64,000 bases of DNA, from the NCBI GenBank assembly GCA_965224255.1, contig CBDCYO010000005.1:1107168-1171167 (forward strand), given 5' to 3'. The stretch comes from Dehalococcoidia bacterium. Its GTDB lineage: Bacteria > Chloroflexota > Dehalococcoidia > UBA6926. This document shows positions 3,902 through 63,150 of the stretch, piece after piece (within the stretch, counting starts at the first letter, position 1; each line of letters opens with the position of its first letter). A program made the position numbers and the translations under genes. The notes below the pieces were generated by a model. The model ran no database searches. It saw nothing but the letters and a program-made list of their open reading frames with translations, and was not told the origin of the DNA.

Positions 3902-5449
3902 ATGATGGCTCTTGCACACGTACGCAGTTGCGCAGTGGTCGGTCTTGAAGGCTCCATCGTGGAGGTGGAGGTGGACATCGCCCCCGGGCTACCGGCGTTC
4001 ACAATTGTCGGACTGCCTGACACAGCCGTTCAGGAGGCGCGGGAGCGTGTTCGTGCCGCGGTCAGGAACTCCGGCTTTGAGTTCCCGCAGCGGCGGATTA
4101 CCGTTTCCCTTGCACCGGCTGATCTCAAGAAGAACGGCACATCGTACGATTTGCCCATCGCAGCTGGCATTCTGATCGGATCCGGGCAGGCGGGCGCGGA
4201 ATTCTCGCTTGACGCTGCCGCCTTTTTCGGCGAGCTCTCACTGGAGGGGCAGGTGCGGCACACGCAGGGCGTGCTCCCGATGGCGGCGCTTGCCCGGGAA
4301 GGTGGATTAACGCAGATCATCGTTCCCGCCGTTGATGCGCCGGAGGCGGCGCTCGTTGACGGTATTGAGGTTCTGCCGGTGAGTAACCTCCGTGAGATGG
4401 TTGAGCACATCAGTGGGGAGCAGGCATGTCGGCCGTTCTACCAGACTGAGCCGCCACAGGAACCGCGTGGGGCAATTGCAGACGGGTTCGATATGTCGCT
4501 CGTACGGGGGCAAGAGAACGTGAAGCGCGCGATGGAGGTTGCGGCGGCAGGTGGCCATAACCTGGTGATGATGGGACCGCCAGGTAGCGGCAAAACCCTC
4601 CTGGCCCGGAGCTTACCCACCATCCTGCCAACCATGACGCGTGAGGAATCGCTGGACGTCACAAAGATCTACAGCGTCGCGGGGCTGCTCCCACCGGAAA
4701 GGCCGCTCATCTCCGCACGTCCCTTCCGCGCACCACATTACACGGTCTCCAACGCGGGCCTGGTTGGCGGCGGGCAGTGGCCGCGGCCCGGAGAAATCAC
4801 GCTCTCCCATCGGGGAGTTCTGTTCTTGGACGAGATGCCGGAGTTCGGCCATCACATCCTGGAGGTGCTCCGACAGCCACTGGAAGATAAGGCCGTGACC
4901 ATCAGCCGGGCGCAGGGTTCAATCACTTTCCCGGCCAATTTCATGCTCGTCGGCGCAATGAATCCCTGCCCGTGCGGTTTCTACGGTGACGTTATCAAGG
5001 CGTGCTCGTGTACCCCAACGACCATCGATCGATATCAGCGTCGTATCAGCGGACCGTTGCTTGACCGCATCGACATCTTCGTAGACGTGCCGCGCGTCGA
5101 GTACGAGAAGTTGACCGATGAGCACGCCGGGGAGACGTCCGCCGTCGTGAGAAATCGCGTGGGAGAGGCGCGAAGTCGCCAACGGGCGCGCTTCGGCGGC
5201 TCATCCGGTGTGATGACCAATGCAGACATGGGCCCAATCGAGATTCGGGAGTTCTGCGCACTCGATGACGCGTCACACGGGTTGCTCCGCGCAGCGATGC
5301 AGCAGTTGCACCTGAGCGCACGCGGCTTTCATCGTATTCTCAAGCTGGCGCGAACGATTGCAGACCTTGCAGAAGAGCCGACAATCACATCCCGGCACCT
5401 GAGCGAGGCGTTGCAATATCGCCCGCGAGAGCTTGGGGCGGCTGCCTAG
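3902..5449 (+). CDS. comM: YifB/ComM family Mg-chelatase-like AAA+ ATPase
   Basis: MMALAHVRSCAVVGLEGSIVEVEVDI...GLPDTAVQEARERVRAAV (N-terminal Lon-like/ChlI domain), Walker A GPPGSGKT, Walker B VLFLDEMPEF, C-terminal Zn-ribbon CPCGFYGD...CSC; start taken at second Met (ORF opens at 3839). Confidence 0.85.
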   Translation: MMALAHVRSCAVVGLEGSIVEVEVDIAPGLPAFTIVGLPDTAVQEARERVRAAVRNSGFEFPQRRITVSLAPADLKKNGTSYDLPIAAGILIGSGQAGAEFSLDAAAFFGELSLEGQVRHTQGVLPMAALAREGGLTQIIVPAVDAPEAALVDGIEVLPVSNLREMVEHISGEQACRPFYQTEPPQEPRGAIADGFDMSLVRGQENVKRAMEVAAAGGHNLVMMGPPGSGKTLLARSLPTILPTMTREESLDVTKIYSVAGLLPPERPLISARPFRAPHYTVSNAGLVGGGQWPRPGEITLSHRGVLFLDEMPEFGHHILEVLRQPLEDKAVTISRAQGSITFPANFMLVGAMNPCPCGFYGDVIKACSCTPTTIDRYQRRISGPLLDRIDIFVDVPRVEYEKLTDEHAGETSAVVRNRVGEARSRQRARFGGSSGVMTNADMGPIEIREFCALDDASHGLLRAAMQQLHLSARGFHRILKLARTIADLAEEPTITSRHLSEALQYRPRELGAAA

Positions 5450-8899: not shown

Positions 8900-9140
8900 T
8901 ATCACTCTGAAACGCAGCGTTAGCGACCCCTATGTCATTCTGAACGAAGCGTGCCCTCGCATGTCATTCTGAACGGAACGTGACCCCACCATGTCATTCT
9001 GAACGGAACGGAGTGAAGTGAAGAATCTAACGCGCCTCTGCCGCAGTGGGGACATGGATTCTTCGTTGTGCTCAGAATGACAGGGAGCGCTCAGAATGAC
9101 GGGGAGCGCTCAGAATGACAGGGAGGGTGGCTCAGAATGG
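8900..9140. repeat. MITE/REP-like modular palindromic element (3 left arms catgtcattctgaacgNaacg, hairpin core gtgaagaatctaacgcgcctctgccgcagtggggacatggattcttcg, 4 right arms gcgctcagaatgacagggag)
   Basis: Direct reading of tandem arm repeats and the inverted repeat gaagaatc/gattcttc in the core. Confidence 0.8.
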
Positions 9141-12187: not shown

Positions 12188-12380
12188 GTGTACATGTCAT
12201 TCTGAATGGAACGCAGTGGAGTGAAGAATCTAACGCGCCTTTGCGGCTGTGGGGGACGTAGATTCTTCGCTACGCTCAGAATGACAGCAGGGCGCTCACG
12301 AATAACAGCAGGGGCATGCGGGCTAGCGGCGCAGAAGGGCCCGCGGGCTAGCACGGAAGAGCGCTCAGAATGACAGGAAG
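12188..12380. repeat. MITE/REP-like element (core gtgaagaatctaacgcgcctttgcggctgtgggggacgtagattcttcgctacgctcagaatgacag plus flanking arms)
   Basis: Same core hairpin and gctcagaatgaca arms as other copies. Confidence 0.8.
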
Positions 12381-20789: not shown

Positions 20790-21062
20790 CATTTGCCCCC
20801 GTCGTTCAGAATGACGTGGTGTGCGTGCCGCATCCGTCGAGGGCGCGCGCTGGCTGTCTTCTCCGCCCCTGCGGCCCTGGGGGCATAGATTCTTCGCTGC
20901 GCTCAGAATGACAAAAGGTAAACGCTCAGAATGACCGGGAGGCGTACGTAATGACAGGAAGGCGTACGTAATGACAGGAAGGACGCTCAGAATGACAGGA
21001 AAAGCGCTCAGAATGACAGGAAGGACGCTCAGAATGACAAAAGGAAAGGGAATGACGGCGTA
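20790..21062. repeat. MITE/REP-like element with expanded right arms (6 x gcgctcagaatgacagg / cgtacgtaatgacagg units)
   Basis: Direct reading of tandem ~22-bp arm units and core gcatagattcttcgctgcgctcagaatgaca. Confidence 0.8.
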
Positions 21063-26934: not shown

Positions 26935-27275
26935 GCCCGCATGTCATCCTGACCGATGTGCGGCTGTCCTCACGCCACCCTGACCGGAGCACCAGCGCCC
27001 CACCATGCCGTTCTGAACAGAGCACGCTAGCCGCCGTGTTGCTCTGAACGAAACGTGCCTACCCCATGTCATTCTGAACGGCGCGTCGGCCTCCCCCATG
27101 CCATCGTGAACGGAACGTAGTGGAGTGAAGAATCTAACACGCCTTTGCTGCAGCGGGGACGTAGATTCTTCGCTACGCTCAGAATGACATGGGGGTCGCT
27201 CAGAATGACAGAGGGGATATGCCTCAGAACGACAGAGGGCGTCGGCGGCGGGGAGTGGATTCTTCGCTACGCTCC
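26935..27275. repeat. MITE/REP-like element cluster (6 degenerate left arms, core gtgaagaatctaacacgcctttgctgcagcggggacgtagattcttcgctacgctcagaatgaca, right arms, second partial core)
   Basis: Direct reading. Confidence 0.8.
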
Positions 27276-28384: not shown

Positions 28385-28612
28385 AGAGCGTCACACACTC
28401 ACATATCATTCTGAACGGCACGCCACTTCACCATGTCATTCCGAACGAAACGTCGGCCTACCCCATGTCACTCCGAACGGTGCGGAGCGACCCCTATGTC
28501 ATTCTGAACGAAACGAAGTGGAGTGAAGAATCTAACGTGCCTGTGCCGCAGTGGGGACGTAGATTCTTCGCTGCGCTCAGAATGACACACAGGGCCGCTC
28601 AGGAATTGTAGA
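28385..28612. repeat. MITE/REP-like element (left arms catgtcattccgaacgaaacg etc., core gtgaagaatctaacgtgcctgtgccgcagtggggacgtagattcttcgctgcgctcagaatgacac)
   Basis: Direct reading; together with 26935-27275 it brackets the methyltransferase gene. Confidence 0.8.
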
Positions 28613-39693: not shown

Positions 39694-40464
39694 CTACGAT
39701 AAGCCGGCGTTCTTCCACTGAGATTCTAGTTGAGGCAGCCGTTCGCTCGCGAATTGTGTGAAACCAAGGACGCGCGGGTGATCTGAGTACCGTTGCTTAA
39801 CGTCGTCCCACACAACCAGATGCAGAGAGTTATCATCGCATATGCCTTTGACGTGCCCAGGTGAAACCTTGTCGTCAGCGGTGACGAGGTAGACGTTCGG
39901 CGCACGCAGTTGCGTTAGCTCGCCTACGACCTCCTGCCAGCGCTCTCGAAGCGTCCGCTTAAGGGAGGCGACGACGCAAACAACATGATTCTTTTCGAAG
40001 GCGGTCTCGCCAGGCAATATAAAGTCGGTGCGGCGCTGCTGGGATTGTCGCACGAATGAGTAACCAGCGTGCTCCAATAGCAACGCGAACTGATCTTCAA
40101 AACTCTTGCCGCCTCGGGACATGCGTCCCTGAGCTACGGACAGGAACGCGCGTCGCAAATCAGGATAAAGAGACTCCAACAGGGCGAAGGCGCCTGCTCT
40201 GAACCCCTCCGTTTCACTGACGTCTGCAGCGTGCGAAACTTGGGCCTGGTTCTCGTTGCTGTTGACGACTTGACTGGCAATTGAACGAGAATAGAATCGT
40301 TCTTCGTACTGCTCGTAGATTGCGAGGGTCTTCTCGCTCAGAGCCCGCAACTGCGCGTCGAAACTTGCGCGGATGGCCTCGGTCCCCTGCGACCCAATGT
40401 TCAACTCTTGCGCAGCTTCACGAACCAGGGCCGTGGACGTTGGGATTTGGGAACGGCTCGTCAT
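39694..40464 (-). CDS. Type II restriction endonuclease (family not assigned)
   Basis: 256-aa ORF overlapping by 4 bp with an upstream co-directional DNA methyltransferase; no match to common metabolic families; GKSFEDQFALLLEHAGY segment; local AT-skew indicates foreign origin. Confidence 0.55.
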   Translation of the reverse strand: MTSRSQIPTSTALVREAAQELNIGSQGTEAIRASFDAQLRALSEKTLAIYEQYEERFYSRSIASQVVNSNENQAQVSHAADVSETEGFRAGAFALLESLYPDLRRAFLSVAQGRMSRGGKSFEDQFALLLEHAGYSFVRQSQQRRTDFILPGETAFEKNHVVCVVASLKRTLRERWQEVVGELTQLRAPNVYLVTADDKVSPGHVKGICDDNSLHLVVWDDVKQRYSDHPRVLGFTQFASERLPQLESQWKNAGLS

Positions 40465-41363
40465 TCACTGGGACTCCGGAAATGTAGAATGTACTCAAAA
40501 GTCGTACCCATCGTTATATAGTTGCTCGGCCATCCGAAAATACCAATACGGTTTACGATATTGGTACGATCCCAAATAATGATGTTCTTGAAGAGGTAGC
40601 CTGCCTCTTGCATGGCCGTTATGACCATGCTGTGCAAGGGAATACGCTCCTCTTTGGCCCACAGGTCATTCACGTTTATGATTGCGTGCCCTCCCGGCTG
40701 GAGAGCAGGTAGAAGGCGTTCAAAGATATCGCCTATCGACCGACTGTAGCTAACGGGGTCAAGAGTTCCGAGGTCACGTTCATCTTGCGAGTACTGCTCT
40801 ACTTTCCCAAACTGGCTATTGCGCCGGTCGCTACTACGCCGGCTCTTATTCGCGCGACGCCGGTTGAGCATATTGGCGTAGGGCGGCGATGTAAAAACGA
40901 GTTTGACCGACTCCGGTTCTAGAAGATGCGAGACGTTTCGGGCGTCCTCGACAAGAGCAACTTGTCGGGTGCTACCTGTGGAAGGCAAGCCGATTCTGCT
41001 GCGGCTCAACTCGACGTACTCCTCGGATAAGTCAACCCCGAGAGCGTTGCGGCCAAGATCGTGGGCGGCAACCAATGTTGTTCCGCTCCCAACAAACGGA
41101 TCGACGACAAGCTCGCCTGCGTGGGTGAACAGTTTGATAACGTGGGTGGCCAGCGCTACAGGGAATGTCGCAGGGTGCAGAGACTTGTCTCGGACATCTT
41201 TGCCGTTGTAGGTGAACCGCCAAACGCCGACTTGGCTCTTCATCCACTCCTTGGCAGTGAGGCAGTTGATGTGATTCGGAGGGCAATCACACAGTCGATC
41301 CGACCCAACACCGATGCCCTCTGCCTGCAGCGCAGGTTGCGCGAACTGTTCCGCTAGTGCCAC
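40461..41363 (-). CDS. N6-adenine/N4-cytosine DNA methyltransferase (beta-class) of a Type II R-M pair
   Basis: SPPY motif (LVFTSPPYANM) and AdoMet motif VVDPFVGSGTTLVAAHDLGRNALGVD; translationally coupled to downstream ORF. Confidence 0.8.
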   Translation of the reverse strand: MALAEQFAQPALQAEGIGVGSDRLCDCPPNHINCLTAKEWMKSQVGVWRFTYNGKDVRDKSLHPATFPVALATHVIKLFTHAGELVVDPFVGSGTTLVAAHDLGRNALGVDLSEEYVELSRSRIGLPSTGSTRQVALVEDARNVSHLLEPESVKLVFTSPPYANMLNRRRANKSRRSSDRRNSQFGKVEQYSQDERDLGTLDPVSYSRSIGDIFERLLPALQPGGHAIINVNDLWAKEERIPLHSMVITAMQEAGYLFKNIIIWDRTNIVNRIGIFGWPSNYITMGTTFEYILHFRSPSE

Positions 41364-43489: not shown

Positions 43490-43777
43490 GTGGTCGGCAT
43501 GGCAACGATTCGGGCGAGATACGAGAAGGGCGTCCTGACGCCACTGGAGCCCCTTGACCTCGAGGAGGGCAAGGGGGTCGTGGTATCAGTGCAGGACGAG
43601 CCCAAGTCTGGCGGCGAGGGTCGCGCCAAGGAGCCCGAGGATACGGGAGAGTCCCTCCTTGAGATGTTTGACAGGCTGCGCAAGTCTGTTCCCCCGGAAG
43701 CATGGGATGGTCTCCCTACGGATCTTGTCAAGAACAAGAAACACTATCTCTACGGCCATCCCAAAGAAGAGGACTGA
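43490..43777 (+). CDS. antitoxin (AF2212/DUF104-like) of a VapBC-type pair
   Basis: MATIRARYEKGVLTPLEPLDLEEGKGVVVSV pattern typical of DUF104 antitoxins; stop overlaps ATG of PIN gene (ATGA). Confidence 0.55.
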   Translation: MVGMATIRARYEKGVLTPLEPLDLEEGKGVVVSVQDEPKSGGEGRAKEPEDTGESLLEMFDRLRKSVPPEAWDGLPTDLVKNKKHYLYGHPKEED

Positions 43778-44196
43778 TGCCAACGCTGTTCGCAGACTCC
43801 GGCTACTGGATTGCGCTCATGTATCCCGGTGATGAGTTGCATGTTCGGGCGAGAACGTTTGCTGCAAGCCTGGGTTCCACACCAATTGTGACCACACAGA
43901 TGTTGTTAGTGGAGGCGCTTAACTTCATGGCGGGCTTGGGCGAATCCCGTCGCAGATTCGCCGCTGAGATGGTTCAAGGCTTACAGGACGATTCCAACGT
44001 TGAGATTATTGAGCAGACAGATTCCCAATTTCGGACCGCGCTCGAACGGTACGCATCTCGTGAGGACCAGACGTGGAGCCTCACAGACTGCGCGAGTTTC
44101 ATCGTCATGGAAGAGCGAGGGCCGTCCGAGGCGCTGGCATACGACCGTGACTTTGAGCAGGCGGGGTTTGTCGCGCTACGACGATCTGTCACCTAA
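43777..44196 (+). CDS. PIN-domain toxin (VapC-like)
   Basis: N-terminal LFADSGYWIAL (D5 acidic residue), ...EQTD..., ...LTDCASF (PIN acidic quartet positions). Confidence 0.65.
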   Translation: MPTLFADSGYWIALMYPGDELHVRARTFAASLGSTPIVTTQMLLVEALNFMAGLGESRRRFAAEMVQGLQDDSNVEIIEQTDSQFRTALERYASREDQTWSLTDCASFIVMEERGPSEALAYDRDFEQAGFVALRRSVT

Positions 44197-44291: not shown

Positions 44292-44654
44292 TCACTCACC
44301 GTTGATGAGCGCGTCAACCTTTTCAATGAATCGTGAGACCTGGGCAAGGCTCTGGCGCACGTCTCTGCTTGCGAATCGACCTTCGTAGAAGTTGGTGTGT
44401 AGACCTCCGGCCTCGTTGAAGAGGGTGCGGAGCGTATCGTCATCCGTCTCTTCTACCAAGCGGCTTACCGCCCCATAAAGCAGACCATGACTGTTGTGAT
44501 CCAGCCCGCGCAGCACCGCGTAAGCCTTGACCAACTGGGCGGCCGCGCCCCAGCCCTTTTCGGAGGCTTGGCGGAGGTCATCGTTAGAGAGTTCAACAAA
44601 GGCCTGATCCAGGAACTTGCGGCCCTGTTCCACGTAGCCGTTGGCGTTCGTCAT
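44292..44654 (-). CDS. HEPN-like four-helix protein (PaREP1/HEPN-like), tentative
   Basis: 120-aa all-helical ORF with motifs SEKGWGAAAQLVKAYAVLRG and HTNFYEGRF; convergent with VapBC; the 60-bp tandem array begins 28 nt upstream of its start. Confidence 0.35.
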   Translation of the reverse strand: MTNANGYVEQGRKFLDQAFVELSNDDLRQASEKGWGAAAQLVKAYAVLRGLDHNSHGLLYGAVSRLVEETDDDTLRTLFNEAGGLHTNFYEGRFASRDVRQSLAQVSRFIEKVDALINGE

Positions 44655-44681
44655 GGCGACAGTATACGCCGGGGTGTTTAG

Positions 44682-45220
44682 CCGGAACGCGGCGCGCGAA
44701 CGACATGGGCACGATACGGCGAGTCGCGACGTTCAGAAAAGCCGGAACGCGGCAAGCGAACGACACGGGCACGGCACGGCGAGTCGCGACGTTCAGAAAA
44801 GCCGGAACGCGGCGCGCGAACGACATGGGCACGATACGGTGAGTCGCGACGTTCAGAAAAGCCGGAACGCGGCAAGCGAACGACATGGGCACGATACGGC
44901 GAGTCGCGACGTTCAGAAAAGCCGGAACGCGGCGCGCGAACGACATGGGCACGGTACGGCGAGTCGCGACGTTCAGAAAAGCCGGAACGCGGCAAGCGAA
45001 CGACATGGGCACGATACGGCGAGTCGCGACGTTCAGAAAAGCCGGAACGCGGCGCGCGAACGACACGGGCACGATACGGCGAGTCGCGACGTTCAGAAAA
45101 GCCGGAACGCGGCAAGCGAACGACATGGGCACGGTACGGCGAGTCGCGACGTTCAGAAAAGCCGGAACGCGGCGCGCGAACGACATGGGCACGATACGGT
45201 GAGTCGCGACGTTTAAAAAG
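44682..45220. repeat. tandem array: 9 x 60 bp (alternating two variants, so 120-bp higher-order period)
   Basis: gccggaacgcggc[gc/aa]gcgaacgaca[t/c]gggcacg[at/gc/gt]acgg[c/t]gagtcgcgacgttcagaaaa repeated head to tail; no unique spacers. Confidence 0.95.
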
Positions 45221-45242
45221 ACCTTAGCAGTTGGATAGTGGG
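45221..45242. other. 3' half of putative pre-16S processing (RNase III) stem; pairs with 46995-47015
   Basis: accttagcagttggatagtggg is the reverse complement of ccactatccaactgttaaggt (one G-U), bracketing the 16S gene. Confidence 0.6.
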
Positions 45243-45452
45243 AGGAAGAGTTCGGTACTTCAGTCCAATGTTGTTTCGTCTTTGTGCGCCGAAGCGCGCA
45301 GCGATCTATGGTGTCCTGTCTCTCATCCGACCGGGGTTCCACCGCCCCGTGAGGGACGGTTCATGCCACGCAGTCACCGAATTTCGAGTCAGGAGAATCG
45401 CTGACCGACCTGGGTGCAATGCGCGCCACATAAAGCGACGCGATTGACTCCC

Positions 45453-46970
<1,518 letters not shown>

Positions 46971-46994
46971 GAACGGAAGACCTCTGTCTTCCTA

Positions 46995-47015
46995 CCACTA
47001 TCCAACTGTTAAGGT
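46995..47015. other. 5' half of putative pre-16S processing stem
   Basis: see 45221-45242. Confidence 0.6.
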
Positions 47016-47122
47016 GCATGCACCCTCCCCTGAGGAAGGACGCACCGCTCAGACTATGCCCCGCGCAGTACGTTGTCAACCCTGAGGACGCGCTCATTAC
47101 GCCGTCAATGGGGCGCGGGACA

Positions 47123-56689: not shown

Positions 56690-56975
56690 CTCTTGTCAGT
56701 GGTGCCCGCCGCCGTGTGATTCCGGGTGCTGTCACCCCTGAGCGCCCTTCTGGCATTCTGAGCGCAGCGAAGAATCTATGTCCCCACTGCCGCATACGCG
56801 CAAGAGCACGCACGGGTTTAGATTCTTCACTTCACTACGTTTCGTTCAGAATGACATGGGCGGGGTGGCCCGCCGTTCAGAATGACAAGGTGGTGGCCGT
56901 GTTCCGTTCGGAATGACAGAGTGCTGCTGCGCATCCGTTCAGAATGACATGGTTGTGCTACGCATCCGTTCGGAA
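56690..56975. repeat. MITE/REP-like element (orientation B core cattctgagcgcagcgaagaatctatgtccccactgccgcata...gtttagattcttcacttcactacgtttcgttcagaatgaca plus 4 degenerate arms)
   Basis: Direct reading. Confidence 0.8.
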
Positions 56976-56984
56976 TGGCAGGTA

Positions 56985-57130
56985 GAGAGTGCCCGCGCAT
57001 GTTGGCGCGCAGGCCGCGCTCAGCGGCAGTGCACTGTGTCAGGTGGAGAGTGCCCGCGCACGTTGGCGCGCAGGCCGCGCTCAGCGGCAGTGCAATGTGT
57101 CAGGTGGACCCGCGCACGTTGGCGCGCAGC
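56985..57130. repeat. tandem array ~2.3 x 63 bp (gtgcccgcgcaYgttggcgcgcaggccgcgctcagcggcagtgcaMtgtgtcaggtggaga)
   Basis: Shares the core AGCGGCAGTG..GTCAGGT with the fabI-leader arrays; directly abuts a MITE. Confidence 0.85.
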
Positions 57131-59240: not shown

Positions 59241-59261
59241 CGTGTGCCGATCGCAGCACTG

Positions 59262-59447
59262 ATGGTAGGACGCGGCGTGCCTATAAAGCCAAGCGGCAGT
59301 GTCAGGTTTAAAAAGCCGCACTGGTGGTAGGACACGATGTGCCGATAAAGCCAAGCGGCAGTGTCAGGTTTAAAAAGCCGCGGTGGTGGTAGGACGCGAT
59401 GTGCCCAAAGGAGCCAAGCGGCAGTGTCAGGTTTAAAAAAGGGCGCG
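59262..59447. repeat. tandem array 3 x 62 bp (fabI-leader unit tggtggtaggacRcgatgtgccgataaagccaagcggcagtgtcaggtttaaaaaRccgc)
   Basis: Each unit ends with GTGTCAGGTTTAAAA = GTG-S-G-L-K, the start of fabI; third copy carries aaggag like the functional fabI RBS; last copy overlaps the 3' end of the R-M gene. Confidence 0.9.
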
Positions 59448-62414: not shown

Positions 62415-62765
62415 GCCCCCCGTGTCACTCCGGGTGCTGCATCGCCATTGCGCATGCCCCCGTCATTCCTGAGCGTCCCCTCTGTCATTCGTGAGCGCCC
62501 GTGTCCATGCCATTGTGGGTGCTTCAGTGTCATCCGTGAGCGCCCCTCTGTCATTCCTGAATGCCGTCGTCTGTCATTCTGAGCGCAGCGAAGAATCTAC
62601 GTCCCCATTGCGGCAGAGGCGAACCACCACACGCACGGTCTGACACACGCGTTTAGATTCTTCACTCCACTACGTTCCGCTCAGAATGACAGGGCGAAGT
62701 AACGTTCCGCTCAGAATGACAAAATGGGGAACGCGCCGTTTACAACGACATGGTGAAGTGGCGTG
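62400..62765. repeat. MITE/REP-like element cluster (6 left arms + orientation-B core + arms), right copy of the composite
   Basis: Direct reading; core 62575-62700 near-identical to 59085-59215. Confidence 0.85.
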
Positions 62766-62794: not shown

Positions 62795-63150
62795 CGATCG
62801 CAGCACTGGTGGCAGGACGCGATGTGCCCATAAAGCCAAGCGGCAGTGTCGGGTTTAAAAAACCGCGGTGGTGGTAGGACACGATGTGCCGATAAAGCCA
62901 AGCGGCAGTGTCAGGTTTAAAAAACCGCGGTGGTGGTAGGACACGCTGTGCCGATAAAGCCAAGCGGCAGTGGCAGGTTTAAAAAACCGCGATGGTGGTA
63001 GGACACGATGTGCCGATAAAGCCAAGCGGCAGTGTCAGGTTTAAAAAACCGCGATGGTGGTAGGACGCGATGTGCCGATAAAGCCAAGCGGCAGTGTCAG
63101 GTTTAAAAAAGGAGCTAAGCGGCAGTGTCAGGTTTAAAAATAGATCTCTC
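62795..63150. repeat. tandem array ~5.7 x 62 bp (fabI-leader unit) ending in the genuine fabI RBS/start
   Basis: Same unit as 59262-59447; final partial unit gives aaggagctaagcggcagGTGtcaggtttaaaaatagat = RBS + GTG start of fabI. Confidence 0.9.

Follow-up and report, generated by a model that had tools for sequence, protein, structure and literature searches.

Between the 16S rRNA gene and a PaREP1-family gene of an uncultured Dehalococcoidia lineage lie nine head-to-tail units of 60 bp, and we consider it probable that they make up a lineage-private minisatellite of the VNTR type and not a dedicated RNA gene or a regulatory device. The array was studied within a 64-kb window, the whole stretch of DNA that was analysed, and its strand is given as (-), the one that would be read by transcripts leaving the 16S gene or heading for PaREP1. 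The features of the locus are the following.

44292 to 44654, (-) strand: PaREP1-family gene (Pfam PF05942, E = 1.7e-19), which in most relatives also follows the 16S gene.
44655 to 44680, (-) strand: 26 nt without repeats that separate the array from the PaREP1 ATG, with TATACT at 44661-44666.
44681 to 45220, (-) strand: probable minisatellite, nine 60-bp units or 4.5 dimers of 120 bp, delimited by TRF, the unit table, lag analysis and the 33-mer at the unit junctions.
45161 to 45220, (-) strand: edge unit u1 of the array, adjoining the stem and set apart from the rest by columns 1, 5 and 7.
45221 to 45249, (-) strand: 3' half of the 16S processing stem (UCUUCCUCCCACUAUCCAACUGCUAAGGU), recognised by its duplex and compensatory changes.
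45250 to 45455, (-) strand: pre-16S trailer of about 206 nt, from the mature 3' end to the stem, conserved in relatives.
45456 to 46966, (-) strand: complete 16S rRNA gene (Rfam SSU_rRNA_bacteria, 1536 bits).
46987 to 47015, (-) strand: 5' half of the 16S processing stem, recognised by the same duplex and compensatory changes.
47051 to 47079, (-) strand: probable 16S promoter TTGACA-N17-TAGTCT, kept in all relatives that include the leader.

TRF reports the dominant array of the window here (44680-45220, period 60, 9.0 copies, 93% matches, no indels, score 956), and the unit on the (-) strand is TTTTCTGAACGTCGCGACTCGCCGTATCGTGCCCATGTCGTTCGC(GC/TT)GCCGCGTTCCGGC. A 33-mer spanning the unit junctions occurs eight times, against 0.00 expected in shuffles, and is invariant in all eight. 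The GCGC and AAGC variants of the unit, as they read on the (+) strand (GC and TT on the transcribed strand), alternate strictly and give the array a 120-bp higher-order period; units differ on average at 2.0 positions at lag 2 and at 4.25 positions at lag 1. Both the nine 60-bp copies and the 120-bp period had been described in a first-pass annotation of this DNA, and TRF and the lag analysis confirm them. Any two units are separated by 0-9 differences, and beyond the GC/TT alternation the variation consists of single bases at five central columns. The most divergent unit is the edge copy on the 16S side, u1, which retains an ancestral-looking CTTTTTAAAC start. Because units two apart are more alike than neighbours, and because the edge unit is the most divergent, the dynamics of the array fit those of a minisatellite, as do the 60-bp unit, the head-to-tail order, the high identity, the non-coding character and the single-copy or absent state of the unit in relatives.

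It is extremely unlikely that the repeat number, or the entire array, is a product of metagenome mis-assembly. There is no counterpart in the searched collections against which the array could be cross-checked, and the relatives' short-read contigs tend to break near the locus, but irregular single-base variants are superimposed on the alternation, as expected of real reads and not of an assembler loop, both flanks run seamlessly into conserved sequence, and several other arrays of similar quality are present in the window. Assemblers usually collapse arrays and rarely expand them. Nor is this a CRISPR array: both consist of regular non-coding repeats, but here the full 60-bp period repeats, the variable columns are single bases and unique spacers are absent, as the first-pass annotation had also concluded. 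Read in six frames, the array is open or nearly so throughout in five. A 300-aa query joining these five frames found nothing at E <= 0.001 among 5.8 billion protein clusters, and the relatives are without the ORFs; a repeat protein was rejected on these grounds, and the earlier view of the ORFs as spurious holds. With so many frames open or nearly so, gene callers will invent proteins in the array, and annotators should be warned of it.

The 16S gene itself is unlinked from 23S and 5S, as had been noticed at the outset, and an Rfam scan finds no LSU or 5S rRNA anywhere in the 64-kb window. Unlinked rRNA genes are a known trait typical of the class Dehalococcoidia (10.1101/705046). The array is therefore not the internal spacer of an rRNA operon, since the window holds no LSU or 5S gene and the relatives run from 16S directly to protein genes; the suggestion that it sits by design in the place where ITS and 23S would be finds no support in the comparison, as relatives with an unlinked 16S gene have no array there. 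On either side of the gene, 45221-45249 and 46987-47015 pair over 29 positions, two of them mismatched, at -44 kcal/mol. In the five genomes that hold both halves, the window and four related genomes, compensatory changes occur at three stem positions, exchanging U-A and C-G, G-C and A-U, and A-U and G-C. The processing stem is thus a real leader-trailer duplex of the RNase III type, in which cleavage is predicted. A stem at this place had been proposed, with co-varying halves in relatives as its test; the halves do co-vary and the array does begin one base past the stem foot, but the stem is 29 bp long and not 21 bp. An A.C mismatch at stem position 7 is kept in all five genomes although neighbouring pairs co-vary, and could be a recognition or cleavage determinant. 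The trailer and stem half together are 76-87% identical to those of relatives, and the TTGACA-N17-TAGTCT element upstream of the leader would, from its sequence and conservation, be the promoter. A scan from the 16S gene to PaREP1, covering trailer and array, found no terminator-like site in the window, including the interval 45243-45456, where the first-pass annotation had allowed that a strong terminator might lie.

Related loci were gathered in two ways, the contigs of L001-L008 via PaREP1 protein homologues and L009-L014 by a GTDB genome scan for the 3' stem half with its T-run. They come from MAGs of uncultured Dehalococcoidia or Chloroflexota, three of which are complete chromosomes, and the four loci with a full 16S gene show 96.6-97.2% 16S identity to the window. 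Ten loci (L001-L004 and L009-L014) were compared for the array. All ten share one layout of 16S, trailer (~210-230 nt), stem half, T-run and next gene, and TRF, run on all loci, finds a tandem array after the stem in none of them. The T-run straight after the stem is kept in all relatives. The gene after the stem is PaREP1 in most loci, an enoyl-CoA hydratase in L012 and L013, and neither of these directly in L010. One of the loci, L011 (JAKZSW010000036.1), is deposited as 'Candidatus Tectimicrobiota' and is probably mis-binned, because its 16S, trailer, stem and PaREP1 match the Dehalococcoidia loci; its 16S identity to the window equals that of L002, and its synteny resembles that of L014.

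Although the relatives have no array, they do have its single-copy counterpart. The 60 nt that directly follow the stem in the closest relatives can be aligned over their full length, gap-free, with the edge unit u1, and the score is reached by 0/1000 dinucleotide shuffles for L001, 3/1000 for L002 and 6/1000 for L011. In the MAFFT alignment the two ends of the segment agree closely (TTTTTTATACCTCGCGA against TTTTTAAACGTCGCGA, GTGTGCCGCGTTCCCGC against GCGCGCCGCGTTCCGGC), the best-conserved part of the spacer is GCCGCGTTCCsGC, and the middle has diverged between the window unit and the relatives. In the relatives this middle is a textbook intrinsic terminator, which in L011 has a hairpin of 8 pairs, 6 of them G-C, with a 4-nt loop and a T-rich tail (-11.8 kcal/mol). 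This canonical hairpin terminator has been lost in the window. An idea formed by eye, that the unit was derived from the PaREP1 -10/ATG region (CGTATCGTGCCCATG against CGTATACTGTCGCCATG), was dropped, as homology to the L001 spacer and similarity to a REP-like repeat explain the unit better. The stretch of L013 (OY762213.1, ~4570-4700) that separates the stem from the enoyl-CoA hydratase gene contains, at spacings of ~40-110 nt, three or four loose copies of CGCGTTCCGGCTTGG, which is also the final motif of the array unit in the window; this spacer motif may duplicate readily in more than a single lineage.

A REP-like repeat with the core CGyTCAGAATGAC is dense in the window, with 26 copies against 0 expected. 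It occupies about ten intergenic loci (6292, 8934-9119, 12273-12374, 20803-21038, 27068-27209, 28498-28586, 56843-56948, 59190 and 62573-62720 among them), and its copies often form 19-32-bp tandem runs, often with TAGATTCTTCGCT before them. It matches no Rfam family at the gathering threshold. There are 0 copies in 80 kb of the relatives' loci, so the repeat looks like a lineage-specific invasion. Of five REP arrays tested, two, at 8932 and 27043, are significantly similar to the array unit (0/300 shuffles each); the comparison was noticed post hoc. The modules GAAyGACATGGG, GGCACG and CGTTCAGAA are colinear between the unit and the REP-like arrays. With ancestral spacer at both ends and a REP-like middle, the array unit looks composite. 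The earlier failure to recognise it from any described element is explained by this, the unit being private to the lineage and put together from local spacer and a genome-specific REP-like repeat.

Tandem amplification in this genome is not confined to the rRNA locus. TRF finds nine arrays with a period of at least 25 bp in the window and one in the relatives' loci, which makes such amplification look like a genome-wide habit and not a peculiarity of the 16S gene. Three other arrays of the window have periods of 61-62 bp, but the 60-bp unit has no kinship with the 61-bp and 62-bp units, their alignment scores falling within the shuffle range. A 62-bp minisatellite family, with a unit ending GGTTTAAAAA, is found at 59256-59439 (3 copies) and 62807-63140 (5 copies), with REP-like clusters ahead of each. 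In the second of these arrays the last partial unit includes the GTG (63125) predicted as the start of a FabI-like enoyl-ACP reductase gene, and that array therefore reiterates the gene's 5' end. An unrelated array of 61 bp x 2.5 copies (56979-57129) adjoins the REP-like cluster at 56843-56977. That 64 kb should contain four arrays from three unrelated unit families, of 60, 61 and 62 bp, is a striking coincidence of period.

These comparisons allow a history of the array to be proposed. The ancestral state, as preserved in the closest relatives, would have been stem, T-run, hairpin terminator, GCCGCGTTCCsGC, promoter and PaREP1 gene. In the lineage of the window the middle of the 60-nt segment, terminator hairpin included, would have been replaced by REP-like sequence, and the remodelled 60-bp segment would then have been duplicated, its two copies diverging at two adjacent positions (GC/TT). 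The resulting 120-bp dimer may have been amplified to 4.5 copies through replication slippage or unequal recombination, processes that would keep the inner copies alike and leave the edge copy nearest to the ancestor. The mechanism, the order of these events and the lack of a selected function are what we infer from the comparison of loci.

Could the array nevertheless have a function through its position? It ends 26 nt before the PaREP1 ATG (44654); the first-pass annotation had correctly placed it directly upstream of this gene, with a gap of 28 nt where the gap is 26 nt. That annotation's label of HEPN-like for the gene at 44292-44654 is acceptable, because the PaREP1 family was placed in the HEPN-T clade by Anantharaman et al. 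(PMC3710099). A hexamer TATACT (44661-44666) lies 6 nt before the ATG, and a Shine-Dalgarno sequence is absent. A promoter element so close to the start codon, with no Shine-Dalgarno sequence, means that the PaREP1 mRNA is probably leaderless, with TATACT as its putative promoter. In L001-L004 a TAnnCT hexamer is found 6-7 nt upstream of the PaREP1 ATG, also with no Shine-Dalgarno sequence, and this suggests leaderless PaREP1 mRNAs across the clade. Since the array ends so near the ATG, the -35 region of the putative TATACT promoter falls within its last unit. As a likely side effect of the amplification, the promoter would have lost the GTCACA -35 element seen in L001, with array sequence at -35 instead, and would now lie 566 nt from the stem foot.

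Beyond PaREP1, on the opposite strand, lies an AF2212-like/PIN toxin-antitoxin pair with overlapping genes (43490-44196), and at 39694-41363 there is a pair of an EcoRII-C-like endonuclease and an N4/N6 DNA methylase. The restriction-modification pair and the AF2212-like/PIN pair are both less than 5 kb from the 16S gene, and such conflict-type genes (restriction-modification, toxin-antitoxin, PaREP1) form a small cluster beside the rRNA locus. PaREP1 as a defence gene was considered and rejected, having no PADLOC match and no PDB sequence match.

The position of the last unit has a bearing on the proposal that the array is a protein-binding or promoter-upstream element, in which nine phased copies of GTCGCGAC or GCCGCGTTCCGGC recruit a regulator or a nucleoid protein at the leaderless PaREP1 promoter. 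Every unit does contain the perfect 8-bp palindrome GTCGCGAC, the last unit does fill the -35 region 26 nt before the ATG, and GCCGCGTTCCsGC, besides being the best-conserved part of the spacer, recurs loosely in L013. However, the palindrome is found twice outside the array in the window against 2.7 expected, which led us to reject it as an operator, GCCGCGTTCCGGC shows no enrichment in the rest of the window, in relatives the gene is expressed with a single copy, and no regulator gene is adjacent, the neighbours being the PIN/AF2212-like pair that runs in the opposite direction. We regard the proposal as very unlikely. The promoter or operator alternative raised in the first-pass annotation was thus right in that the array abuts the -35 region of the PaREP1 promoter, but the palindrome is not reused elsewhere.

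A different function was the first to be suggested, that of an abundant RNA made by read-through from the 16S promoter, which could for instance act as a sponge, be processed into a small RNA, or engage the neighbouring HEPN-type protein as its substrate or decoy. In its favour, a canonical terminator is missing from the stretch leading from the 16S gene to the array, the array starts one base past the stem, and the PaREP1 gene downstream belongs to a predicted RNase superfamily. Against this, the 60- and 120-nt units, folded in several registers on both strands, do no better than shuffles (z of +0.2 to +1.3 in most registers and -1.0 in the best, junction-centred one), and a permissive Rfam scan of 44600-45460 gives 0 matches at E <= 1; a structured non-coding RNA was rejected on both counts. 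The array is also missing wherever a relative shares the locus architecture, transcription may already end at the conserved U5 that adjoins the 29-bp stem, and cleavage in the RNase III-type stem would separate the array RNA from the 16S precursor. RNA released 3' of an RNase III cut has a 5' monophosphate and as a rule is quickly degraded. A functional read-through RNA is therefore highly improbable, and the idea of the array as a designed part of the rRNA locus that makes such an RNA finds no support, given the lack of an array in relatives, their single-copy homologue with its terminator and the null results of folding and Rfam.

Termination deserves separate consideration. Each unit forms, on the transcribed strand, a GCCG/CGGC hairpin of 4 pairs (-5.3 kcal/mol) that runs into UUUUCU. 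As a likely side effect of the amplification, 16S transcripts would meet the stem and U5 and then nine weak GCCG/CGGC hairpins with UUUUCU, and it is plausible, from the sequence, that 16S termination would depend on the conserved U5 together with the nine weak hairpin and U-tract units. It is a further step, and an unlikely one, to suppose a reiterated terminator or insulator in which the nine GCCG-cguuc-CGGC hairpins with UUUUCU act with the stem and U5 to stop 16S transcription before PaREP1 and are kept by selection. The relatives carry their strong terminator at exactly the position of the array, where the window has none, the small G-C hairpin and UUUUCU recur in every unit, the T-run follows the stem in all relatives, and the hairpin-bearing junction region is invariant between units. 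Yet the hairpin is of 4 bp only and fails the terminator scan, and the unit was rejected as an intrinsic terminator, which calls for a G+C-rich hairpin of at least 5 pairs with a U-tract immediately behind it. Moreover, the best junction fold puts the U-tract inside an internal loop and not after the hairpin, the junction-centred register is only marginally better than shuffles, and other arrays of the same genome have expanded without any such context.

Selection could also be joined to the history proposed above. The REP-like burst would then have destroyed the 16S terminator, and the spacer would have been amplified under selection as a replacement terminator or insulator that shields the leaderless PaREP1 from a promoter among the strongest in the cell, acting by weak hairpins or by protein-bound palindromes and possibly tunable by copy number. 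We find this rather improbable. Some features of the array count against the minisatellite reading. The invariant 33-nt junctions and the restriction of variation to central columns could reflect constraint, though nine young copies offer little statistical power; the 8-bp palindrome and the small hairpin and U-tract of each unit could have been co-opted; and, as the array stands exactly where a very strong transcription unit has to terminate and the next gene has to be initiated, a selected insulating role is possible. The minisatellite remains our preferred explanation, and its best reading is that any effect of the array on 16S termination or on PaREP1 expression is incidental.

How does the array compare with known repeats? 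Bacterial minisatellites or VNTRs, such as those used for MLVA in Xanthomonas (PMC12654951) and the minisatellite of P. gingivalis (PMC4596501), are the nearest kind. Like VNTR loci, the array is intergenic, its head-to-tail units are near-identical with the edge copy most divergent, it is single-copy or absent in relatives, and there is no signal of a product; the defining behaviour of VNTRs is a copy number that varies between strains, and the window's array is known from one genome, exact look-ups of the PaREP1 and enoyl-CoA hydratase proteins having yielded no second genome of the species. Unlike bacterial VNTRs, it has a strict two-unit higher-order period, which is more typical of eukaryotic satellites, and it lies flush against an rRNA processing stem, an unusual position. 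MIRUs resemble it in having units of 40-100 bp, in tandem, between the genes of a transcription unit and in variable arrays, but they are one family at dozens of loci. A 23-mer from the array junction has 0 matches in each of the GTDB species genomes, the JGI metagenomes and IMG/VR, and within the 64-kb window neither the junction 33-mer (with up to 3 mismatches) nor GCCGCGTTCCGGC is found outside the array. The whole unit therefore resides at a single locus of the window, on which grounds a dispersed or mobile element of the REP/BIME, MIRU or MITE kind was rejected, and the unit is as locus-specific as first thought. The CGyTCAGAATGAC repeat of the window is itself REP/BIME-like, being intergenic and dense, and the array unit contains three colinear modules of it, but unlike a REP or BIME the whole 60-bp unit is not dispersed, and its ends are homologous to the single-copy local spacer of relatives. 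With the intrinsic terminator of the relatives' 16S genes the array shares its place after the stem and T-run and its homologous flanks, but the 8-pair hairpin and T-rich tail have gone, and each unit has instead a 4-bp hairpin with UUUUCU.

The array looks like an ordinary minisatellite, and in this sense it is a tidy case study and not a surprise. It documents the birth of a minisatellite, in which the single-copy progenitor, the repeat-driven remodelling and the dimer-wise amplification can be read from relatives, and it does so at a delicate site, where an unlinked 16S transcription unit has its 3' boundary. It explains the breaks of short-read contigs at the locus, and would suit strain typing of this uncultured Dehalococcoidia lineage. 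The array would be of greater importance if its copy number were to tune 16S termination or the expression of the downstream HEPN-type gene.
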